A stretch of 64,000 nt of DNA from Escherichia phage UE-M6. The stretch lies in the sequence record PP301343.1; one strand, given 5' to 3'. This document shows, in pieces, positions 2,541 to 56,068 of this stretch (positions within the stretch are counted from its first letter, which is position 1; every line of letters begins with the position of its first letter). The notes below the pieces were generated by a model. The model was not told the DNA's origin. It worked only from the letters and a program-made list of their open reading frames with translations, and did no database searches. The position numbers and the translations under genes were made by a program.

Positions 2541-4811
2541 ATGGAACACCAAGACACTTTTAAGCCTTTACCAGACCCGGCTCAATCAGAGAAGTTAACG
2601 GACTGGAAGAAGGAACCAAGTATCCAATTACTGAAGGGTGATTTGGAATCTGCTAAACCTGCTCACGATGCAATCATGGCACAGATTCGTGAGTGGAATG
2701 ATTTAATGGAAGTAAAGGGTAAGGCTAAACCCCCAAAGGTTAAGGGACGCTCGCAAGTCCAGCCTAGACTGGTTCGCCGTCAGGCAGAGTGGCGTTATGC
2801 TCCATTGTCTGAACCATTCCTCTCGTCTAACAAACTATTTAAGGTAACTCCGGTTACTTTTGAAGATGAGTTAGCTGCACGCCAGAATGAGCTAGTTCTT
2901 AACTACCAATTCCGTACTCAGCTTAATAAAGTAAAACTGGTAGATGATTACGTGCATAGTGTCGTAGATGACGGTACTGGTATTGCTCGTATCGGTTGGG
3001 AACGTAAGACTATTAAGATTAAAACAGAAACTCCAGTCTTCCAGTTGTATCCAATTGAGAACCAGGAACAAGCAGATGTTCTCCAACAGGCTTTGCAGCT
3101 TCAGGCAGAGAATCCCCGTGAGTATGACGAAACAATGCCAGAAGATATCAAAGAAGCTGTTAACTACTTCAATGAAACTGGAGAAGCTACTTATGCAATT
3201 CAGACAGGGGTCACTGAAGTAGAAGTAGAAAAAGCACTGGTTAACAGACCTACCGTTGAAATGCTTAATCCTAATAACGTAGTTATTGACCCGAGCTGCA
3301 ATGGTGATTTGGATAAGGCTCTGTATGCAGTCATTTCCTTTGAGACTTGCAAAGCAGACCTTATGAAAAACAAAGACCGTTATCACAACCTAGATAAAAT
3401 TGACTGGGAGAGTTCCAGCCCCATTACTGACCCAGACCATGAAAGTAAAACCCCTAGCGATTTCCAGTTTAAGGATGCACTTCGTAAGAAGGTAGTTGCT
3501 TATGAGTACTGGGGATTCTACGACATCAATGATGATGGTTCACTGGAACCAATTGTTGCTACCTGGATTGGTTCTACTCTTATTCGTATGGAGAAGAACC
3601 CATTCCCAGATGGTAAGTTACCATTGGTAGTTGTTCCTTATATGCCTCGTAAACGTGAACTCTATGGTGAAGCTGATGCTGAATTGCTAGGAGATAACCA
3701 AGCAATTCTTGGTGCAACCATGCGTGGGATGATTGACCTGTTGGGCCGAAGTGCAAATGGTCAACGTGGTTATCCTAAAGGGATGTTAGATACCCTGAAC
3801 CGTCGTCGATACGATGATGGACAAGACTACGAATATAACCCAATGCAGGGCAATCCTAGTCAGGCCATTATGGAACACAAGTTCCCTGAGTTACCCCAGT
3901 CGGCAATAGTAATGACTCAGATGCAAAACCAGGAAGCAGAAGCACTAACGGGTGTTAAAGCATTCTCGGGTGGTGTAACTGGTGAAGCTTACGGAGATGT
4001 AGCTGCTGGTATTCGTGGTGTACTAGATGCAGCATCCAAACGTGAGATGGCAATCCTTCGTCGATTAGCTAAGGGTATGGCAGACATTGGTACTAAGATT
4101 TGTGCAATGAATGCTGTGTTCTTATCTGAGAAAGAAGTAGTACGTATTACTAACGAGCAGTACGTAGAGATTAACCGTGAAGACCTTAAAGGTAACTTCG
4201 ACATTGAGGTTGATATTAACACTGCTGAAATTGATAACCAGAAGTCCCAGGATTTGGGCTTCATGGTTCAAACACTAGGCAACACAGTTGACCAGTCTAT
4301 TACGTTATCTCTTGTAGCTAAGATTGCAGAACTTAAACGTATGCCAGACCTTGCTCATGAGTTACGTACATGGCAACCACAACCAGACCCTATGGAAGAA
4401 CAGCTTAAGCAATTGGCAATTCAGAAAGCACAGCTTGAGAACGAAGAGCTGCAAAGTAAGATTGCACTCAATATGGCTAAGGCTAAAGAGGCTGCTTCTA
4501 GTGGTGACCTTAAAGATCTGGATTATCTGGAACAGGAATCTGGTACTAAACATGCTCGTGACATGGAAAAACAAAAAGCACAATCTCAAGGAAACCAGAA
4601 CCTTCAGATAACTAAGGCGTTGACAACACCTACTAAAGAAGGTGAAACTACCCCCAACATATCTGCTGCTGTTGGATATAACGCTTTGACTAATGGGAAC
4701 TCTATACCAGAACGTGACTTAGCTGCACAACAAGACCCAGCTTATTCACTTAGTTCCCAATTCTATGACCCTAGCCAAGACCCAGCATCGGCTCTTGGCA
4801 TGAACTTGTAA
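2541..4811 (+). CDS. Portal protein (N4 gp59-like)
   Basis: 756-aa ORF, size and position upstream of scaffold and capsid genes; strong coding signal. Confidence 0.8.
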
Positions 4812-4824
4812 GGCAGACCTTCAC

Positions 4825-5169
4825 ATGAGTAAAGAATCAACAATCGCAGGACTGGAACATCGACTGGAAGCTGCTAAAGGTGCAGTTGCACACGCAGAAG
4901 ATGTACGTAAACTTTTGGAGTATCCACTGTTCCGTAAAGTAATTCTTCGTCAGTTCTGTGTGGAAGATTGTGCACGTTACGTGCAGGAGTCTGGTGACCC
5001 ACTGCTTGAACCTAATAACCGTGCAGATGCATTGAACATGGCTCAAGCTGCTGGTCACTTACGTCGTTGGCTCGACCTCGCCATTCGTATGGGCGAAAAC
5101 GAAGCTGACGTTATTCTTCAGGTAGAAGAAGAACTCGATGCAGTTCGTGCTGAACCTGAAGATGAATAA
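4825..5169 (+). CDS. Hypothetical head-module protein
   Basis: 114-aa ORF between portal and putative scaffold, tightly packed. Confidence 0.5.
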   Translation: MSKESTIAGLEHRLEAAKGAVAHAEDVRKLLEYPLFRKVILRQFCVEDCARYVQESGDPLLEPNNRADALNMAQAAGHLRRWLDLAIRMGENEADVILQVEEELDAVRAEPEDE

Positions 5170-5188
5170 TTAACCGGAGATATTTCCT

Positions 5189-6409
5189 ATGACTACGGAA
5201 GCTGCAACCACAGCTTCCGACATTCTCGCAATGTCGGATGATGAGATTCTGAATATGGAAGCCCCAGCAGTTATCGCTGAGGAAGATACTTCCACTCAGA
5301 ACAACCCAGAAACCAACGGCGTACAGACTCCTGATGAAGAAGTTGACACCTCTGCTGTTGAAGACCTACCAACCGAAGAAACCTCCCCTGAAACCGAACC
5401 AGTTGAAGAAGATGCAGCAAATTCTTTAACTTCTGATAAAGTTGATGATAAAGTTGTTGACACAGAAGTTGATAGTAACGGTAAGCCGATTACTAAAGCT
5501 GAACCTTCTACTGCTGAACCCGGCCAGGAACAGAAAGAAGAAGGCAAACAGTCTGAAGGTCTGCCTGCTGACTTCAACTATAAGGAAGGTTACGAGAAGT
5601 TGATGGCTCCTTTTAAAGCTAACGGCAAAATGATTACTCCCCGTTCACCGGAGGAGGCCATTAGCCTGATGCAGATGGGTGCTAACTATACTCGTAAGAT
5701 GCAAGAACTTCAGCCGTACCGTAAGGTAATGCTGATGTTACAGAACAACGGTTTAATGGATGAGGACAAACTCTCTTTCCTGATTGACCTGGATAAGAAG
5801 AATCCTGAGGCCATTAAGAAGTTGCTCAAAGACTCTGGTACAGACCCTCTGGACTTTAACCCAGATGAGGAAATTAACTACCAGGGTGGCAATCACCGTG
5901 TTACCGACACCGAAGCAGATTTTGCAACCGAAATTGACGACTTAAAGTCTACTCAAGAAGGACAAGCTACATTAGGTGTTATTGGCTCGACATGGGATGC
6001 TGCCAGTAAAGATGCTCTTTATCAGAATCGTGGCTTACTCCATACGATTCACGAACAGCGTGAGAATGGTATTTATGACACCATTGCTAACGAAGTGAAT
6101 CGTCTTCAGATGTTAGGTCAGATTCCGGTAGGTACTCCGTTCATTCAGGCTTATAACTACGTTGGCAACCTCCTTGCACAACAGGGAGCATTTAACCAAG
6201 TAGCTAAGCCTGAGCCGGTACAAGCAGTTAAACCAGCAGTTCAGCCGGTAGTGCGTGTAGCACAACCTAAGCAGACTCTGGCTAACAGTGAGCAAGCTAA
6301 AGCAGCTTCCCTTAATCGGGCTGCTACACGCAAAGCAACACCTATTGTAAACCCACTCGCTATGAGTGATGAAGATTTCGCTAAACTCCCAGTACCGGGT
6401 AGTCTTTAA
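5189..6409 (+). CDS. Putative scaffolding protein
   Basis: 406 aa, very acidic low-complexity N-terminus, helical charged remainder; immediately upstream of the major capsid gene. Confidence 0.45.
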   Translation: MTTEAATTASDILAMSDDEILNMEAPAVIAEEDTSTQNNPETNGVQTPDEEVDTSAVEDLPTEETSPETEPVEEDAANSLTSDKVDDKVVDTEVDSNGKPITKAEPSTAEPGQEQKEEGKQSEGLPADFNYKEGYEKLMAPFKANGKMITPRSPEEAISLMQMGANYTRKMQELQPYRKVMLMLQNNGLMDEDKLSFLIDLDKKNPEAIKKLLKDSGTDPLDFNPDEEINYQGGNHRVTDTEADFATEIDDLKSTQEGQATLGVIGSTWDAASKDALYQNRGLLHTIHEQRENGIYDTIANEVNRLQMLGQIPVGTPFIQAYNYVGNLLAQQGAFNQVAKPEPVQAVKPAVQPVVRVAQPKQTLANSEQAKAASLNRAATRKATPIVNPLAMSDEDFAKLPVPGSL

Positions 6410-30992: not shown

Positions 30993-33146
30993 TTATTTGC
31001 CAGCGTAGCGTTTAGCCACGGTGACCATTACGGTTGCATTCAATTCATCATCTGGTAATGGATTAGCCAGTTTCTTATTGAATGTGTGGACGGCTTGCTG
31101 TACTTGAGCAAAGTCCCAACCACTGTCAACCAATGCCAGTGCGTACTTAATCATTTGATTATTACGATTACCGGAGGCAATACGACTAGCGAACCAACGC
31201 TCCAGATTATCCAACGACTGTACTTCCTTCATCTGGTTCTGGAACTGCTCGTTCTTACTAGTACGAGGAATAAAGTCACGCACATCTAACAGATTCGCAT
31301 CAAGATTGTAATGATAGGAACCAGTCTCACAGGACATCCACTTCTTGGCTCGTTGGTTAGCAGACTCATCTGTTTCAAATGGTAGCCAAGCCATAACGTT
31401 ATTCATGAACTCTTTGTATTCCTCAGTGTCGAGGTGTAACTCATAGTTCATTGGAATAATCAGACGGAAGCGGTTCTCTTCATCAGTATGACGCTTGGTG
31501 GTATAGGTCATGAACTTATATTCCTTCATTAGTTCATGGCACGTATGCAGGGGTACTCCACCATCACAGTCAATAACAATCATGTTAAATCCTGGGATAA
31601 CATTTTCTTCAGAACGATGCCCATTCTTCATGTGATGGTTTACCCAGTGCATACCGGGAGCTTGGGTTAATACATGCAACTGGTCGAACGGTACACGTTC
31701 ACCAATGTAGTCATAAGCAAAGCTATCACTATACGCCACAATCATCTCATTGATGTCTGTCTCTTTAAGAGTTTCACCACGGAAGAACTCAATACCTTCA
31801 TTGAAGGTCTTCTTAATGATGATGTGCTGCTTGTAACCCCATGCTGTAGCAAGAGTCATCATCTCATTACGAGCTGCATTACCACTCTTATAGAATGGTA
31901 AAGACTCCACCAAATCAGCATGGGTTACTTCTTTACCTACAGAAGCAATGTACTTAGCCAGCTTCACATAAGCCTTCTCACGATTGAGGATTGTCTGAAA
32001 TGCTGCTCCAGATTCTTCTACAAGCAGAATTGCTTGTTTAAGGTGGGTCATCTCAATGAATGAACTTTGGTCAACAAACGCCAGTGCACCTGCCAGCTTA
32101 AGTGCTTTGAAATAACGGTGAGAAATTTCAGCTTTACGAATATCTTCATGGTCAGCCATAGCTTCTGCTTGCTTCTCACAATCAATTTTGTAAGCAATCA
32201 GAGCAATACCCACGGCATCTTCTACAACCATCTTAAAACCAAACAGGTTTGGGTCAGCCAGACTATGGAAATGGTTAGCCCACTTACCAAGAGTCTGTAC
32301 GTTATCTTGTTTAATCAGGTTACGGTAGATTTCTTCCGGGGTTAGTGTTGCATGTGCTCTCTTGTCTAAGTGACCAGTAGCAAACAGACAGCGACGTGCA
32401 TACCCTATATCGAGAAAGCCATAGAACTGGTCTTCAGTCTGACCACCATCCAGCAGCTTACTCGGAGTACCGAACAGCAGCAGGTTAGTTGGAGTTTTTC
32501 CATCCAATTCTTCACCACGAACGCTTTCAGCAGTATTCTTGGTTAGCTTCTGTTTTACTTTTCCCTGGTCATATAACTCCAGGAATAGGGTTAGTACATC
32601 CATGTTAGCCAACAGGTTCGAACCAATTTCATCAATCTGAAGATTGATTGAACCACACCCAGCCATTAACAGCTTATGCCGTAGCTGTTTAACTGCTGGT
32701 GGAGTACCAGAGTCAAACGTAAACGGATATGCCCCGGCACGTTTATACTCTGCTTCAACTTTATCAAACTCTTCCTGCTGGTCAGTACCCTGACGAGCAG
32801 AACGTTCGTTAGCAATCTTCCATAGACGATCATTTGCAATGACGGGCATGGTGTCTTCCATAAAGCGTTTACGGAAGCCAGACATGAACCCGTCTTCAAT
32901 GATATTTACTGAGTGACCTTTACCGAAACCAGATGTAGCCAACGCTATAGCGTAGATGTTTACCGGCAGGTCACCACGGTCTTTAGTTACAATGGTTGCA
33001 CCCATGCAGGATGCCATTTTAGCCAAGAAGTAGGCTACTTCGACACGGAAGAATCCCCGGTCATTATTCTGGGTTTTATTGCAGAGCACATCTACGATTT
33101 CTTCAATCGCTGGATGGTGACTGATGTCAGTAAGGTCGATACTCAT
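30993..33146 (-). CDS. Putative DNA primase (N4 gp43-like position)
   Basis: 717-aa ORF placed by synteny between the ATPase and nuclease genes; no motif verified by eye. Confidence 0.45.
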   Translation of the reverse strand: MSIDLTDISHHPAIEEIVDVLCNKTQNNDRGFFRVEVAYFLAKMASCMGATIVTKDRGDLPVNIYAIALATSGFGKGHSVNIIEDGFMSGFRKRFMEDTMPVIANDRLWKIANERSARQGTDQQEEFDKVEAEYKRAGAYPFTFDSGTPPAVKQLRHKLLMAGCGSINLQIDEIGSNLLANMDVLTLFLELYDQGKVKQKLTKNTAESVRGEELDGKTPTNLLLFGTPSKLLDGGQTEDQFYGFLDIGYARRCLFATGHLDKRAHATLTPEEIYRNLIKQDNVQTLGKWANHFHSLADPNLFGFKMVVEDAVGIALIAYKIDCEKQAEAMADHEDIRKAEISHRYFKALKLAGALAFVDQSSFIEMTHLKQAILLVEESGAAFQTILNREKAYVKLAKYIASVGKEVTHADLVESLPFYKSGNAARNEMMTLATAWGYKQHIIIKKTFNEGIEFFRGETLKETDINEMIVAYSDSFAYDYIGERVPFDQLHVLTQAPGMHWVNHHMKNGHRSEENVIPGFNMIVIDCDGGVPLHTCHELMKEYKFMTYTTKRHTDEENRFRLIIPMNYELHLDTEEYKEFMNNVMAWLPFETDESANQRAKKWMSCETGSYHYNLDANLLDVRDFIPRTSKNEQFQNQMKEVQSLDNLERWFASRIASGNRNNQMIKYALALVDSGWDFAQVQQAVHTFNKKLANPLPDDELNATVMVTVAKRYAGK

Positions 33147-33658
33147 TTGATTAATCCTATGCTCTTATTAGTGACGGCATATTCTCCGAAGTATTTTACG
33201 GCAGCTAAGTCGTATACTTTGGCAGCTTCAATTGCTTCCAGGAATACACCTAAATGAATTGATTTACGGTTTACTTTGATTTTGGCTAAGTAGTTACCCC
33301 TGAACTTAGTAACACCCATAAAACCACTGGTGTTGTTTTTATTCAGTCCACGGTTAGCACCATTGGTGCTTTTATCCGCTTCCCTTAGATTGTCTATCCA
33401 GTTGTGGTGACGTATGGTGTCTTTATGGTCTATTAAACCAGTAGGCCACATACCGTACACGTACAACCAAGCTAACCTATGGGCAGCTTCCCGTTTGGCA
33501 TCAACTGTTATGTAGAGATAACCGTCACTGTTATTGAGCGACCCAGCAACACTACCGACAGGTGTTCGGTTACTGAGGGAGATGCGGCGAGTAAATATCC
33601 CAGTAAGTGGGTCATAATGCAGCAACTCTTTTAGCCGTTGCTGAGTCAGCTTAATCAT
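33143..33658 (-). CDS. HNH homing endonuclease with AP2 DNA-binding domain
   Basis: HNH_3-like motif YDPLTGIF...IDHKDTIRHHNWIDNLRE and AP2-like C-terminus; start at the internal Met; inserted between the nuclease and primase genes. Confidence 0.75.
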   Translation of the reverse strand: MIKLTQQRLKELLHYDPLTGIFTRRISLSNRTPVGSVAGSLNNSDGYLYITVDAKREAAHRLAWLYVYGMWPTGLIDHKDTIRHHNWIDNLREADKSTNGANRGLNKNNTSGFMGVTKFRGNYLAKIKVNRKSIHLGVFLEAIEAAKVYDLAAVKYFGEYAVTNKSIGLIK

Positions 33659-34635
33659 GATGGAAAATATCTCTCTCTTTGTTTGCAAATGGTTGCGACA
33701 GGGCAGTATAAGCAACGCTTAACCTGCCCCTCCACGACCTTGATAGCACCCTTGCCACCTTTTTCAGCCATGAAGATACGGGCAGATGCCATATCGTCAA
33801 AGTTTTTGGTACTTCTGGCTCCAGGCATATCTACCTTAGAAGCATCAGAGAAGTATTTGAACTGTGGCTCTGTTCGCCACAACTCCTCGTCAGTACATTC
33901 AGGAATTTCCTCTTCAGGAGCATCCCAGTACTTTTCGATGAGATGTATCTTCTCTTCTACCCAACGTTCAGTCTTATCGACAGATAACAACGGAATATCC
34001 TTATGCATAATACGATTAGCAGGATAGTTCGGATTGCTATTAGCCATGTGTTTCATGAAGTCAGTGAAGATGTAGTTAATACGGATTACATCCTCGGTAA
34101 TGATGTCGTTGTGAATCCAACGGTACAAGCTACCTTGCATCTTGTGTTCATCATCACGGGAACCAGCAACCCAGGAATAGGTTGAGGTAGACTTAAAGTC
34201 TTGCAATAGACCTTCTGTTACGATGTCGAACTTACCTCCGATAGTCCAACCCTTAACTACCCTGGTTCCACGTTGTTCAATGTAGATTGGGATAAGGTCA
34301 GGGTTAGCATCAAAGTCTGCTTTGGTTGGGTTAATGACTACTGCATCAATTACTCGCTGAGGATAACCCAACTTTTTCAATGCAGTCTTATGGCCTAACT
34401 TCCAGGCTTTCTCAATAGAATCGTGTAAGCCAGTACCCATTGATGTGGAGACGAAATCCATAACATCAATAGACTGGTCACTAAGGTCTACACGATGTTT
34501 CATGACGATTTGCTTAAGTGGCTTAAGCAATGTAGTTACAGACAGATACTTGGGATTGTCTACATAATCATACTCGTCATGTAATAGCCATACAGCCAGG
34601 GCCAGCGAGACATCATGGTTGTTGGTTATCTTCAT
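33655..34635 (-). CDS. Putative PD-(D/E)XK-type nuclease with C-terminal Cys cluster (N4 gp42-like position)
   Basis: 326 aa; C-terminal CLYCPVATIC cluster reminiscent of Cas4/RecB-like nucleases; in the replication module. Confidence 0.4.
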   Translation of the reverse strand: MKITNNHDVSLALAVWLLHDEYDYVDNPKYLSVTTLLKPLKQIVMKHRVDLSDQSIDVMDFVSTSMGTGLHDSIEKAWKLGHKTALKKLGYPQRVIDAVVINPTKADFDANPDLIPIYIEQRGTRVVKGWTIGGKFDIVTEGLLQDFKSTSTYSWVAGSRDDEHKMQGSLYRWIHNDIITEDVIRINYIFTDFMKHMANSNPNYPANRIMHKDIPLLSVDKTERWVEEKIHLIEKYWDAPEEEIPECTDEELWRTEPQFKYFSDASKVDMPGARSTKNFDDMASARIFMAEKGGKGAIKVVEGQVKRCLYCPVATICKQRERYFPS

Positions 34636-48839: not shown

Positions 48840-49346
48840 TTATTTTGAAGGTCTAGCAGCTACTGGTTTGTTTTCCTGATTCTGATACTTACCATTGTAA
48901 TTAGCAGGTTCTTGAACCAGATGAAATAATACTTGAGCTATCCCAGCACCAGCCGGGATATGCAATTTCTTACGACCGTGATAGACCAGTTCGAGGGTAA
49001 GATACCCTTTCCATCCTGGTTCTATTACGGTATTGAACACTGATAATGCACGTCTTGCCCATGTAGACTTATCGTGAACGATTGCTACACAGGACGGGGA
49101 CATGTTGAACTTCTCAATTGCTGAGGCCAAGGCGAACTTACCGAGATGGCGTGATACTTGATTTCCATCAACGACTTTCACCATTGGAATCAGCCCAAAT
49201 AAGCGATAGAAGGTAATATCTTGTTTGATACGAATATCATAACCAGCTTCACCTAATCCATAGCTTACACCATGCTCTGATACCTTATGGTCTGGGACAT
49301 CCAGCAACTGAGATGAACGGTATAGAGAATTACCATTAACAACCAT
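48840..49346 (-). CDS. dCTP deaminase / dUTPase-family protein
   Basis: Motif GEAGYDIR and later PAGAGIAQVLF resemble trimeric dUTPase/dCTP deaminase motifs. Confidence 0.45.
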   Translation of the reverse strand: MVVNGNSLYRSSQLLDVPDHKVSEHGVSYGLGEAGYDIRIKQDITFYRLFGLIPMVKVVDGNQVSRHLGKFALASAIEKFNMSPSCVAIVHDKSTWARRALSVFNTVIEPGWKGYLTLELVYHGRKKLHIPAGAGIAQVLFHLVQEPANYNGKYQNQENKPVAARPSK

Positions 49347-50521
49347 TATTTCATTCCTTTAGGGATATGAACTACCTCCCCAAAAGGTACGGTAGCATTG
49401 GGATTATTCAGAACACACCAGATGATAGGAATATCAAATGGTAATTCTTCCATTGGACGAACATACATATCGGAGAATATGATTGCAGCGGTTGGTTTAT
49501 TCTTAATAATCCACTCGCGTACTGGTTCCAGGTTTGTACCACCACGACCGGTAATCTTAATCTCTTCAAAAGTATCTTCTTCAGTGATGTCTATCTCTTC
49601 TTGGATAATATCGTCGAAGGTAATTAAGGACATCTTCTTAGGATTGAACTGGCTCTTAACGTAGGCAACCTCTGAGTTAAAACGCAGAGAGTCAGCACTA
49701 CTAATAGAACCAGATACATCCTCAAAGTAGGCTAAGTGTCGTAAGCGTCCTTCATCATCTTCCATGGAAGGTAGATAGATGTCAGTAAAACGACGGTTAG
49801 GTCTGGCCCACGTATAATGAGTATCGTCAATGTCGGTAAAGAAGTTCATGAGGACTTCCTGCCATGGAACCACTGGTTTAAGGAATTGGGTAATAACCTC
49901 TTCCATACGACCAGCACCCTTACCGGGCATCTGTCCACCAGCCATTTTCTGGCTCTGCATTGCTCGTACTACGTTGTTGACGACAGCACCCTGGGACTGC
50001 CCCGAAGTGGGGGATTTCATGTCGCCAGCAAGACCTGCTCCAGCACCCCCTGACGGCTTCTGCCTTTTCTGAGGGTTCTTCATCAGGTCATCGTAGATGT
50101 CTTCTTCGACCCATCCTTTATATTGAGGGTCTTTGCAAATACCTTTATCAATGCCAGTGAACTTGTAACCGTCTTCCTCTAACTGAAGGTTAATGAAGTG
50201 GTCACATGCCTGATTCCAGATTTCTGGGTCACGGCTTCCACGACGGATGCCATGCAGATATGCCACATGCCAAAGTTCATGCATTAACACTGTTTCTCTG
50301 GCATCTGGACACATCCAGATAAAGAAATCTGGATTGAAGTGAAGTTCTATCCCATCAGTACATGCAGTGGGACAATTCTCACGTTTCCATGAGAACTTAA
50401 GACTACATAGTAATGAACCAAAGAACGCAGCACTGCGTCCGAGAAATGCGTTGGCCTGTATTCTATCGTATTCCCTCATTAACTGTTCATCAGTGAGGTT
50501 ATGTGGTGGTATGTTATTCAT
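49346..50521 (-). CDS. VWA-domain protein with N-terminal HExxH metallopeptidase-like region (N4 gp25-like)
   Basis: HELWH motif in the N-terminal half; MIDAS-like DVSGSIS in the C-terminal half; partner of the upstream AAA+ ATPase. Confidence 0.6.
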   Translation of the reverse strand: MNNIPPHNLTDEQLMREYDRIQANAFLGRSAAFFGSLLCSLKFSWKRENCPTACTDGIELHFNPDFFIWMCPDARETVLMHELWHVAYLHGIRRGSRDPEIWNQACDHFINLQLEEDGYKFTGIDKGICKDPQYKGWVEEDIYDDLMKNPQKRQKPSGGAGAGLAGDMKSPTSGQSQGAVVNNVVRAMQSQKMAGGQMPGKGAGRMEEVITQFLKPVVPWQEVLMNFFTDIDDTHYTWARPNRRFTDIYLPSMEDDEGRLRHLAYFEDVSGSISSADSLRFNSEVAYVKSQFNPKKMSLITFDDIIQEEIDITEEDTFEEIKITGRGGTNLEPVREWIIKNKPTAAIIFSDMYVRPMEELPFDIPIIWCVLNNPNATVPFGEVVHIPKGMK

Positions 50522-50997
50522 TAAGATGCTCCATGATTTATATGGTAACCCAATAATTTTTCTGCTTCCTTTCTGGCTGTAATGGCCTCTTGTTTACTGT
50601 TAAACTTTCCTAAGTAAATTTGTTTACCATTATCATTTATATGGGCAGCCCAGATTTTATCTCGGGTGTGCCAGTAAACTCCTGTCACACCTGATGTATT
50701 TGTAATTCTCTTGGTTTGATTTTTGCAATTAATCGAGTTTGTTACTAAACGGAAATTGCTTGGGTAATTATTTAATCTATTATGGTCAATATGGTCTACC
50801 TGCATACCGTCAGGAATTGGTCCAATCTCCATTTCATAAATTATGCGGTGAACTAAATGCATTTTCTTGTTACATTTAACACGCAAATACCCACTGTTAT
50901 CCAAACAACCGGCAATGGCACCTGCTTTTACGCAGCCCCTGCTTACTTTCCAGTAGAGGGAACCATTGCTATAAACAAATAGTTCATGCCAATTCAT
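50521..50997 (-). CDS. HNH homing endonuclease with AP2 domain
   Basis: HNH_3-like VDHIDHNRLNNYPSNFRLVT and AP2-like C-terminus; inserted exactly between the AAA+ and VWA genes. Confidence 0.75.
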   Translation of the reverse strand: MNWHELFVYSNGSLYWKVSRGCVKAGAIAGCLDNSGYLRVKCNKKMHLVHRIIYEMEIGPIPDGMQVDHIDHNRLNNYPSNFRLVTNSINCKNQTKRITNTSGVTGVYWHTRDKIWAAHINDNGKQIYLGKFNSKQEAITARKEAEKLLGYHINHGAS

Positions 50998-51001
50998 TAT
51001 T

Positions 51002-52054
51002 TTATCCGTGAATGTAACGAGAGATATTAGCAGCAGCCTTACGCCATTCAGGTGTAGCCTGAAGTTCTGGCAATGCTCTGCCTACTGTACGGAAGTACAG
51101 AATCTTATGGGTGAACGTTTTAAAGCGTTCAATGTACTGAAGAACATCAGAGAAGTTTTCTTCAGTAGTTTTGTTAGCCAGGTGGTTAACAGTAGCCCAA
51201 CACAGGTTGTTATCTTCCGGTAGTGCACAGCCCAGAGGGTCTTTGACTACTTTCTCAATCGTAATCATACGATTGTATACCTGAGTGAATTGAACAAACT
51301 CTGTAGCCTTACCAGCAGTAACATGTCCTGCGTAGTAGATAGAATCTTCATCTGGCAGAGCACCTTCAGGACGGTTCTTGAGGTCTTTGTTAACAAAGTC
51401 CCAGGTGCGTGGGCAACAGAACGTTTTGTTCTTATGGGCTGGGTCGAAGTCATGCAGATAACCTGGGTTAGCATGTAAGAATGCAACCAGACGTTCATCC
51501 CATTCTTGTGGAATCATTACATCTTCAACAAAGATGTCGAAGTTAAGTTCCATTTCGAAGTGAACCACGCGAGACTGCATTGCAGTGCCCAGTGGGTTAA
51601 CAATGGCACGGTCAGTAGCTTTGTTACCAGCACATATAATCATCACATTAGGATGGAGTTTTTTCTGACCAGTCATACGGTCCAGAATCAGTTTGTATGC
51701 AGCAGCTACTACTTCTTTTCTGGCTGAGTTGAACTCATCAAGGAACAGGAGCCAACCATTATATCCTTCCGGTATCTCATCCCCCTCAATAGGGAATAAG
51801 TCAGCGAATGGGATAAACTCTGCACGGTCACCATTACGGAATGGTAGACCAGACAAATCCTCTGGGGCAGAAGTAGACAGACGATGGTCTATCAGTTTCA
51901 TACCAAATTCTTCTGCAACAGAGCGAATAATTGCAGATTTACCCATTCCCGGTGATGAAGTCAGGAACGGTACGTTACCTGCTTGCAGGGCACGGATAAT
52001 AAAGTTACGGGCCTGACGTGTATTACATACGGTCAGTGAGTCAATGCTCGCCAT
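51002..52054 (-). CDS. AAA+ ATPase, MoxR/CbbQ-like (N4 gp24-like)
   Basis: Walker A SPGMGKS, Walker B LLFLDEF; 350 aa. Confidence 0.7.
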   Translation of the reverse strand: MASIDSLTVCNTRQARNFIIRALQAGNVPFLTSSPGMGKSAIIRSVAEEFGMKLIDHRLSTSAPEDLSGLPFRNGDRAEFIPFADLFPIEGDEIPEGYNGWLLFLDEFNSARKEVVAAAYKLILDRMTGQKKLHPNVMIICAGNKATDRAIVNPLGTAMQSRVVHFEMELNFDIFVEDVMIPQEWDERLVAFLHANPGYLHDFDPAHKNKTFCCPRTWDFVNKDLKNRPEGALPDEDSIYYAGHVTAGKATEFVQFTQVYNRMITIEKVVKDPLGCALPEDNNLCWATVNHLANKTTEENFSDVLQYIERFKTFTHKILYFRTVGRALPELQATPEWRKAAANISRYIHG

Positions 52055-52088: not shown

Positions 52089-52415
52089 TTAAGATTTAAT
52101 ACATGGGTAGGCTGTATCAATTGCCATCAGAACCATGTCTGATGGTACTTTTACTGCATTAACCTTTCTGTCATACAGAATAATAGTGGCTACTTTGTCA
52201 AAGACATTTCCTAACTTCAAACTATCTGGTACGCAGTTCTTACCTGCTTCTACACCCATAGTAACCATGCCCATAAAGTAACCCTGGTTCACAAAGTTTG
52301 CATTATTGGCTTTGTAGTCAGCAGCAGCGTCTAACAGAGTTTCACGGCTGGATGCTTGAGCATTGAATGACAGAACTGATAAAGCTACTACAGCAACAGC
52401 AATTAAAGTTTTCAT
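52089..52415 (-). CDS. Secreted / periplasmic small protein (signal peptide)
   Basis: N-terminal MKTLIAVAVVALSVLSFNAQA looks like a Sec signal peptide with an AQA cleavage site; mature part about 85 aa with two Cys. Confidence 0.5.
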   Translation of the reverse strand: MKTLIAVAVVALSVLSFNAQASSRETLLDAAADYKANNANFVNQGYFMGMVTMGVEAGKNCVPDSLKLGNVFDKVATIILYDRKVNAVKVPSDMVLMAIDTAYPCIKS

Positions 52416-53068: not shown

Positions 53069-53098
53069 AAAAAAAGACCTCCCTTCATCTGGGAGGTC
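53069..53098 (-). terminator. Rho-independent terminator after the decoration-like gene
   Basis: 8-bp stem gacctccc/gggaggtc, followed on the - strand by a T7 run. Confidence 0.65.
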
Positions 53099-55561: not shown

Positions 55562-56068
55562 TTATTGACCGTGACGGTTAGTATAGCCAGCACCATTCTG
55601 GTTCAAGGCTTCTAACATGTCGGCTCGTGCATCACATGCTTGTTGGAATGCGAACTCGTAGCCGTATTTCTTAACTGAGAATACTTTACACCTCTGTTTC
55701 TTTGTGATGTTGTCCGTACATGTAGCACGCCAGAATAACCCCTTTGGTGAATCCCATAGAGATACACCAGTTACCCCAGATTTATTGTCTGAACGTTTAG
55801 TAGAGTTACGCAGGTTGACTACAATGGGAACACATCGCAAGTTACACCAGCGGCAGTCCGTTCTGATACCGTTGATGTGGTCAATTGTATAACCAGCAGG
55901 GATAGATCTATGCTTCATTTCCCACAACCAACGGTGAAGGTATAAGATTTTATTTCCACGAGAGATGCGAATGTACCCAGTGGCACTATTCGCTGCCTCC
56001 GGTGGATGGGCTACAGCAAGTTCATCAACTGACTTGTTCCAGTAGCCCATTGGCATACGCTCTTTCAT
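55562..56068 (-). CDS. HNH homing endonuclease with AP2 domain
   Basis: HNH motif IDHINGIRTDCRWCNLR and AP2-like SGVTGVSLWDSPKGLFWRA; inserted between the two RNAP II subunit genes. Confidence 0.75.
   Translation of the reverse strand: MKERMPMGYWNKSVDELAVAHPPEAANSATGYIRISRGNKILYLHRWLWEMKHRSIPAGYTIDHINGIRTDCRWCNLRCVPIVVNLRNSTKRSDNKSGVTGVSLWDSPKGLFWRATCTDNITKKQRCKVFSVKKYGYEFAFQQACDARADMLEALNQNGAGYTNRHGQ

Follow-up and report, generated by a model that had tools for sequence, protein, structure and literature searches.

In the NorQ–NorD couple, a MoxR-class AAA+ ATPase is paired with a partner protein that carries a VWA domain. [quoted passage not shown] Kahle et al. proposed that a pore-entering finger, which in NorD is 46 residues long, is general for MoxR/VWA couples. 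In viruses, Iyer et al. (2021) described a MoxR–vWA–metallopeptidase pair in the group 2.2 jumbo phages and proposed that it takes part in building virions and in peptidolytic processing, on the model of the MoxR–VWA tail-development system of the Acidianus two-tailed virus (ATV) (PMC7824862). The N4-like phages have gp24 and gp25, core genes of unknown function (PMC4193335, PMC2784036), which a 2014 study of 25 N4-like phages counted in their set of 14 core genes and which are described as middle transcripts in N4 (PMC4193335). Here we describe the gp24–gp25 locus of Escherichia phage UE-M6 (sequence record PP301343.1), located at positions 49346-52054 of a 64,000-nucleotide stretch, the whole of which was analysed and is called the window below. 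We propose, in a reading that we consider about evenly poised, that gp24 and gp25 form a two-component, ATP-driven MoxR/VWA protein-remodelling machine that has its own zinc peptidase and acts on a mid-infection client.

The span contains three complete open reading frames (ORFs), all on the minus strand and head to tail, as follows.

51002-52054, minus strand: gp24, MoxR-class AAA+ ATPase (ORF of 350 aa; Pfam, PHROG and fold match)
50521-50997, minus strand: HNH-AP2 homing endonuclease, the equivalent of G7C gp24.1 (complete ORF of 158 aa; Pfam, PHROG)
49346-50521, minus strand: gp25, zincin-like metallopeptidase domain plus minimal VWA domain (ORF of 391 aa; Pfam DUF2201_N and DUF2201)

The original prediction was of a MoxR-type ATPase followed by a VWA protein in the N4 gp24/gp25 slot. 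The order of the two is right; their direct adjacency is not, since the 158-residue HNH ORF intervenes, so that the locus has three genes. The slot is confirmed by the orthologues in phage vB_EcoP_G7C, for which the RefSeq labels are “ATPase” (gp24, similar to N4 gp24), “HNH endonuclease” (gp24.1) and “VWA-like domain-containing protein” (gp25, similar to N4 gp25). The four motifs on which the prediction was built, SPGMGKS and LLFLDEF in gp24 and HELWH and DVSGSIS in gp25, are found at the expected residues on the minus strand. At the nucleotide level, the window is 99.8% identical to phages UE-S5b, UE-S5a and UE-M3 and 92% identical to vB_EcoP_G7C. By sequence, we assign it to Gamaleyavirus, as a G7C-like member of the N4 family (Schitoviridae).

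The assignment of gp24 to the MoxR class is supported by profile and fold searches. The protein passes the generic Pfam AAA model (E 2e-6, 28.7 bits), matches PHROG 1297, “ATPase” (E 7e-134), and scores 17.5 bits on Pfam AAA_5, under the cut-off of 22. Bacterial homologues with 26–31% identity do exceed the AAA_5 cut-off (27.7 and 29.3 bits), and AAA_3, the Pfam model for MoxR proper, is passed by one of them (27.1 versus 27). The only matches in a phmmer search of PDB sequences were the AAA modules of midasin (E 9e-5), and a search of NCBIfam gave no match for gp24, the HNH protein or gp25. With the AlphaFold2 model of gp24 (predicted local distance difference test, pLDDT, 86.5), the best solved structures found by Foldseek were the NorQ hexamer and NorQD complexes 9qh4 and 9qhd (E 2e-7, template modelling score 0.60 on the target), and further matches were CbbQ2 6l1q (E 1e-6) and dynein AAA modules. 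The predicted MoxR type is thus upheld. The resemblance to the NorQ–NorD and CbbQ–CbbO systems holds for fold and mechanism and does not extend to the domains of NorD and CbbO proper: Pfam finds neither a CbbQ_C-type domain in gp24 nor a NorD/CbbO-type N-domain in gp25, and the pair belongs instead to the DUF2201 (COG3864-type) family. Neither the profile nor the fold searches assigned the two proteins to unrelated families.

The conserved elements of gp24, with residue conservation read from an alignment of 41 homologues, are as follows.

51935-51955, minus strand: Walker A motif SPGMGKS, gp24 residues 34-40; P35, G38, K39 and S40 invariant
51842-51889, minus strand: DHRLSTSAPEDLSGLP, conserved segment between strands β2 and β3; D56, H57, R58, S62, P64, D66, G69 and P71 invariant
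51731-51751, minus strand: Walker B motif LLFLDEF, gp24 residues 102-108; D106 and E107 invariant
51566-51577, minus strand: QSRV, gp24 residues 160-163, with putative arginine finger R162; S161 and R162 invariant
51401-51418, minus strand: CCPRTW, gp24 residues 213-218, in the lid domain; R216 and T217 invariant

Most of these elements extend to the bacterial homologues, which retain GxGKS of Walker A, LDE or LDD of Walker B, xxRF at the position of QSRV and, in at least 60 of 70 proteins, PRSW or PRTW. The sensor 1 triplet, A142-G143-N144, is invariant or nearly so among the 41 homologues; bacterial retention is stated for the other elements. R162 is a putative arginine finger, given its place relative to the MoxR motif ALLDRF. 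Likewise, R216 of PRTW is a putative sensor-2 arginine, from its position in the lid domain and from MoxR motifs. The segment between β2 and β3 reads DHRLSTSxPEDLxGLP, invariant or nearly so at each defined position, and bacterial homologues keep DPxDLxGLP. In the model, it belongs to a conserved insert of about 40 residues, partly of low confidence, between the strands at 52-58 and 100-106; residues 64-73 have low pLDDT in the monomer, and short strands precede the strand at 137-144. This segment is a candidate for the helix-2 insert or pore region.

In gp25, Pfam finds DUF2201_N, “putative metallopeptidase” (E 3e-56, 191.3 bits versus a cut-off of 23.2), followed by DUF2201, “VWA-like” (E 2e-34, 119 bits versus 26.4). 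A search of PDB sequences with gp25 gave no match, and its AlphaFold2 model has a pLDDT of 78. The elements below were defined with an alignment of 42 homologues from metagenomes and phage genomes.

49763-50473, minus strand: N-terminal DUF2201_N putative metallopeptidase domain with linker, gp25 residues 17-253 (Pfam)
50267-50281, minus strand: HELWH, putative zinc-binding/catalytic motif, gp25 residues 81-85; H81, E82 and H85 invariant
50189-50218, minus strand: WNQACDHFIN helix, gp25 residues 102-111; A105 and D107 invariant
49787-49816, minus strand: YTWARPNRRF motif, gp25 residues 236-245; W238 and R244 invariant, R240, P241, N242 and R243 at least 90% conserved
49364-49735, minus strand: minimal VWA domain, gp25 residues 263-386
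49700-49720, minus strand: MIDAS DxSxS (DVSGSIS), gp25 residues 268-274
within 49535-49549, minus strand: MIDAS residue T329
within 49466-49483, minus strand: MIDAS residue D351

We classify the N-terminal domain as a zincin, and predict it to be a peptidase, from its HExxH motif and its weak similarity to M48/HtpX proteins, to the minigluzincin MJ1213 and to SprT-like proteins. A profile of the domain core gave weak matches in the PDB to an HtpX homologue (E 0.0075) and to the minimal zincin MJ1213, M48 peptidases and BepA (E 0.0075–0.1), and the bacterial members of the family gave sub-threshold SprT-like and M48 matches. HExxH is retained in about 61 of 80 bacterial homologues. A second conserved element is the WNxACD helix, whose W, N, A and D are invariant in a mixed phage and bacterial alignment. 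D107 in this helix is a candidate for the third zinc ligand, and H90 is also among the candidates.

The VWA domain is complete at its metal site: D268, S270, S272, T329 and D351, the full MIDAS set, are invariant in the alignment and retained in the bacterial homologues. The domain is small, with about 125 residues and no long insertion in the secondary structure of the model. It is joined to the N-terminal domain by a linker of about 100 residues, Gly-rich and helical, which is modelled at low confidence over much of residues 157-255. At the end of this linker, W-x-R-P-N-R-R (residues 238-244) stands directly before VWA strand 1, the strand that ends in the MIDAS DxSxS. Residues 232-255 are predicted to be disordered (pLDDT <50), and PNRR is retained in the bacterial homologues. 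We suggest W-x-R-P-N-R-R as a candidate ATPase-binding segment.

The gp25 family has been misnamed in databases. PHROGs v4 calls it (PHROG 1314) “HNH endonuclease”, which is wrong, as gp25 has no HNH domain by Pfam; the name has spread to many RefSeq phage records, among them NC_070871, NC_070873, NC_019401 (GAP32_211) and NC_013692.

The pairing of the two proteins is ancient and is conserved from bacteria to several phage families. A profile search of 1.84 billion cluster representatives found gp25-type proteins in 21,787 clusters at 50% identity (E <= 1e-3), and a scan of one genome per prokaryotic species confirmed 571 relatives. The bacterial loci kept numbered 79. Eight had too little flank to judge; of the other 71, 68 have a gp24-type ATPase gene that lies upstream of the gp25-type gene and shares its strand, and three have none upstream. 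In about 16 loci, the ATPase and DUF2201 genes are directly adjacent, as in Desulfobacter vibrioformis, where the stop and start overlap. In about 45, or about two thirds, a third gene for a helical protein of about 300 residues lies between them (for example, 5033-5977 in locus L030). The third-gene products are a single family (44 of 45) with weak similarity to DUF3150, one member exceeding the Pfam threshold, and come from Acidobacteriota, Pseudomonadota, Cloacimonadota and Chloroflexota. No homologue of this family was found in the UE-M6 window or in the jumbo or rV5-like phage loci, and it has no PHROG match.

Among phages, tblastn located gp25-type genes in 741 records, including schitoviruses, jumbo phages (GAP32, phAPEC6 and others) and rV5-like phages; BFVD adds proteins of Bacillus phage PBS1, a crAss-like virus and a cyanophage. 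GAP32 and phAPEC6, both jumbo phages, have the gp24-type ATPase gene directly upstream of the gp25-type gene. Among close relatives, mostly phage-sized contigs of 70–77 kb, identity is about 50%, with a mean column identity of 56–58% in the gp24 and gp25 alignments.

Three loci in prokaryotic records stood out. The isolate genomes of Mesorhizobium yinganensis (L005, a 727-kb contig) and Xenophilus sp. Marseille-Q4582 (L007, a 914-kb contig) contain N4-like blocks, the former with gp24, gp25, dCTP deaminase and ThyX, and the latter with gp25, a helicase, a DNA polymerase and a stretch resembling the virion RNA polymerase. They could be schitovirus-like elements, integrated or carried, or else chimeras produced in assembly. 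The 69-kb contig JANQNF010000027.1, assigned to “archaeon isolate PL23a_bin.95” (L004), runs collinear with the window for 13 kb, with protein identities of 55–95%; we read it as the genome of a Gamaleyavirus-like phage that was wrongly placed in an archaeal metagenome-assembled genome.

The best template for a gp24–gp25 mechanism is, by analogy, NorQ–NorD. We propose that gp24 would assemble as a hexameric AAA+ ring and that gp25 would dock on the ring by its C-terminal VWA end. The W-x-R-P-N-R-R segment would probably join in docking, replacing the pore-inserting finger of NorD. The MIDAS metal site would then capture an acidic residue of the client, and ATP hydrolysis would twist or stretch the linker of about 100 residues between the VWA and N-terminal domains. 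Movement of the linker would expose the client to the HExxH domain or would un-gate that domain. Coupling of the two proteins is supported by the 4-nt gap between gp24 and gp25 in the sister phages that lack the HNH gene and by the pairing across bacteria and jumbo phages. In this scheme, we infer the physical gp24–gp25 interaction, the proteolysis, the middle timing in UE-M6 and the client.

The most likely client is a protein handled within the cell in mid-infection, either a conserved one of the phage or a highly conserved one of the host. We suggest this because the pair lies in the middle block, among replication and nucleotide genes, and because it is core. A housekeeping client is likewise favoured over a variable host-defence target by where the genes lie, by the middle timing reported for them and by a core status that goes with about 50% identity across close relatives.

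Several observations weigh against this proposal. In 8 of 80 bacterial homologues, the motif reads HxVMH, with the catalytic Glu replaced by Ile, Leu or Thr, and MIDAS and PNRR are retained; proteolysis is therefore not obligatory for the gp25 family, and non-proteolytic variants exist. The N-terminal domain shows only weak similarity to the M48, minigluzincin and SprT-like families, and its fold class and third zinc ligand are tentative. The modelled VWA domain has no room for a NorD-type finger of 46 residues, and its docking mode may differ. The rV5-like phages carry a gp25-type protein without an adjacent gp24-type ATPase. Finally, a literature search on DUF2201, on Schitoviridae with MoxR, on N4 essentiality and on DUF3150 found no functional study of any family member. 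With regard to the rV5-like phages, an adjacent gp24-type ATPase was considered and rejected: the upstream gene is Srd/anti-sigma-like. The PHROG of that kind, PHROG 3118 (Srd/anti-sigma-like), may carry a mislabel similar to that of PHROG 1314.

A stronger form of the proposal, to which we give about a one-in-four standing in our own judgement and which we therefore hold as tentative, is that the pair is a new type of ATP-dependent protease. The MoxR ring would twist a VWA adaptor whose MIDAS grips the client and, with no threading of the substrate, gate the attached zincin; the pore ligand would be PNRR in place of the NorD-type finger, and the machine would be indispensable in N4-like phages. 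If so, it would process a client that defines the family; the giant virion RNA polymerase would be one example, and a factor of replication or of host takeover another.

Of the other explanations, the one that survives best is that the pair is a chaperone of virion assembly with a maturation protease, which would help to fold, assemble or trim structural proteins (of the head or tail, or the giant virion RNA polymerase). We regard it as possible, with a likelihood similar to that of the new protease type and clearly below that of the remodelling machine. It is what Iyer et al. proposed for the jumbo phages, which carry true homologues of both proteins (PMC7824862), and the VWA protein ORF892 (VWFA) of ATV weakly matches the gp25 structure (E 1e-4). 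In GAP32, three virion structural genes precede the pair, and no recognisable prohead protease was found by PHROG among the ten late-block ORFs tested in the window. In the N4-like phages, however, the pair is in the middle block, by the dCTP deaminase and ThyX genes and far from the late structural genes, and it is described as middle-transcribed in N4. Evidence from virions is divided. The gp24-like ATPase of phAPEC6, gp265c, was detected in purified virions by mass spectrometry (6 peptides, 19% coverage), but thymidylate synthase is on that list too, which makes carry-over from the cytoplasm likely, and the gp25 homologue gp264c is not listed (PMC7247149). The table of the Roseobacter N4-like virion proteome is without gp24 or gp25 homologues (PMC4193335), and most bacterial homologues are in loci without virion genes.

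A role as a metal-cofactor insertion chaperone of the NorQD, CbbQO or CobST type appears unlikely. The HExxH site would in this case be no protease but would hold metal or transfer it to a phage or host metalloenzyme, for example one of nucleotide metabolism. The closest solved structures of gp24 are indeed those of NorQ and CbbQ, the typical work of MoxR/VWA couples is to insert metals or to activate enzymes (PMC13036017), enzymes of nucleotide metabolism adjoin the pair, and the bacterial members without the catalytic Glu keep both His residues. Yet the complete HExxH, including the Glu, is invariant in all 42 close homologues, and the gp25 domain resembles peptidase families rather than metallochaperones. 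Pfam gives no match to a CbbQ_C-type or NorD-type domain, and no conserved metalloenzyme accompanies the pair across bacteria and phages.

It is equally improbable that the pair is a conflict module, that is, a counter-defence or host-takeover protease directed against host immunity or a housekeeping protein, with the bacterial homologues as defence or mobile systems. In favour of this reading, bacterial conflict systems commonly include MoxR–vWA modules that have effector peptidases (PMC7159879), and the bacterial pair behaves as a self-contained mobile cassette of two to three genes with varied neighbours, some of them phage-like (Sipho_Gp157 in Telmatobacter). Against it, genes for counter-defence tend to be accessory and to evolve fast, unlike this pair, which is core and has about 50% identity across close relatives. 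The ternary systems that have been described include a third component of the VMAP type, which is missing here, and PADLOC gives no significant match, returning for gp24 just a partial match to DolB (13.8 bits, E 0.006) and for gp25 none.

The HNH ORF is a free-standing homing endonuclease, a selfish insertion that has no part in the ATPase/VWA system. It matches Pfam HNH_3 (E 2.6e-18) and PHROG 99, “HNH endonuclease” (E 2e-63), and its AP2 match (E 2.8e-7, 31.2 bits) is below the cut-off of 33.3. About 30 related phages align to the span in two pieces, with about 81% coverage, and hence lack the HNH ORF; ECBP1 and PGN829.1 are among them. The element is a precise insertion of 476–477 nt between the gp24 stop plus 4 nt and the gp25 start codon. 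In the HNH-free sisters, the distance from the gp24 stop to the gp25 ATG is 4 nt. The junction of ECBP1 reads ...CACGGATAA-AACA-ATGAAC..., and that of UE-M6 reads ...CACGGATAA-AATA-ATGAAT(HNH ORF)...TCTTAATGAATAAC... Two HNH-AP2 paralogues occur elsewhere in the window, at 55562-56068 (minus strand), between two RNAPII subunit genes, and at 33143-33715 (minus strand), between two replication-block genes; all three are wedged between conserved genes.

Two further kinds of homing element enter the genes themselves. In phage U1G (NC_070872), about 880 nt with an HNH ORF (4920-5800) interrupt gp24 at D106 of Walker B. The depositors labelled this insertion “phage intron”, and Rfam scores it as a group I intron at 23.7 bits versus a gathering score of 50 (E 0.0024). 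In addition, two metagenomic gp25 homologues contain inteins, one of about 310 residues (P0253) and one a mini-intein of about 143 residues (P0244). Both are at the identical site, WNxA/CD (between A105 and C106 of gp25), and have canonical C...HN/C junctions, which in P0253 read ...WNFA/CVAKGT...VVHN/CDIRINN. The gp24/gp25 locus is thus targeted by three kinds of homing element: a free-standing HNH gene, an intron-like insertion and inteins. Typically, such elements occupy functional sites that are conserved, in genes that are indispensable. Because of this preference, they are circumstantial support for the essentiality of gp24 and gp25 and for the ACD motif as part of the active site.

A split of U1G gp25 by an HNH gene was also considered and rejected: its two “HNH endonuclease” coding sequences together make up one frameshifted gp25, each covering a half, and the wrong label came through PHROG 1314. 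The U1G gene (3004-4175, 1172 nt) has two overlapping frame segments, for residues 1-158 and 148-391, and a 1-nt frameshift, which is either a sequencing error or the mark of a pseudogene.

The surroundings of the pair in the window, confirmed by Pfam for the neighbouring genes, include the following.

48840-49346, minus strand: dCTP deaminase gene, downstream of gp25
53076-53098, minus strand: terminator-like hairpin behind the Hoc-like gp17 gene, with an 8-bp stem (6 GC pairs) and then a T7 run

A spacer of 4 nt separates gp24 from the HNH ORF, and 1-nt overlaps join the HNH ORF to gp25 and gp25 to the dCTP deaminase gene. The hairpin is the nearest strong terminator-like hairpin upstream of gp24 and, from its sequence, is the likely start boundary of a transcription unit that would hold gp24, the HNH gene, gp25 and gp26. 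Given the tight packing and the upstream hairpin, gp24, the HNH gene and gp25 therefore look like parts of one transcription unit. The pair is in the middle block of replication and nucleotide metabolism, and its place relative to RNAPII, gp17, dCTP deaminase and ThyX is conserved; in G7C, gp25 is followed by the dCTP deaminase gp26 and ThyX gp30. Just upstream of gp24, a 108-residue ORF (52089-52415, minus strand; G7C gp17.3) encodes a protein whose N-terminus is hydrophobic and, by eye, resembles a signal peptide. It has a sub-threshold Pfam match to Rap1a immunity proteins (E 0.002, 19 bits versus a cut-off of 27.7).

The gp24–gp25 pair comprises two of the 14 genes common to all N4-like phages and is also found in jumbo phages and thousands of bacterial clusters. 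Assigning a client to it would fill a gap in the N4 infection cycle and could define how a MoxR/VWA motor is coupled to proteolysis.

The comparison with known systems runs from the near to the distant. N4 gp24 and gp25 (YP_950502, YP_950503) are orthologues of the UE-M6 proteins, with the same lengths and domains and in the same slot, from the RNAPII/gp17 block to gp26; the Enquatrovirus orthologues have about 61% identity to the UE-M6 pair. UE-M6 and G7C differ from other Gamaleyavirus members, such as ECBP1, in the HNH gene inserted in the pair, and otherwise there is no difference from the N4-like pair. The jumbo phages keep both families, their order and their adjacency (GAP32_210/211; phAPEC6 gp265c/gp264c, the latter pair including a protein labelled “N4 gp25-like”), but their proteins are longer, the ATPase by about 100 residues and the VWA-peptidase by about 60–85, and have just 23–26% identity. 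The bacterial DUF2201 operons (COG3864, “predicted metal-dependent peptidase”) encode full-length homologues of both proteins at 25–34% identity; the two genes share a strand, their stop and start codons often overlap, and the proteins have the same invariant motifs as gp24/gp25, including PNRR. They differ in that about two thirds have the DUF3150-like third gene of about 300 codons, which has no homologue in UE-M6.

The viral and enzymatic MoxR/VWA couples are more remote. ATV encodes its own couple, and ORF892 is a weak structural match of gp25; however, it is a protein of 892 residues from an archaeal virus, without a peptidase domain according to Iyer et al. (PMC7824862), and its homology to gp25 is confined to the VWA fold. 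Compared with NorQ, gp24 has about 90 more C-terminal helical residues. Compared with NorD and CbbO, the VWA domain of gp25 is half the size and lacks the NorD finger, and the N-terminal domain is a predicted zincin rather than the NorD/CbbO domain; cNOR and Rubisco, the clients of NorQ and CbbQ, are absent from phage biology. The pair itself is already known from GenBank annotation and from the 2009, 2014 and 2021 papers. What the present analysis adds to these descriptions is the three-gene anatomy of the locus, the motif map, with PNRR, WNxACD and a finger-less minimal VWA domain, and the three kinds of homing element found there.

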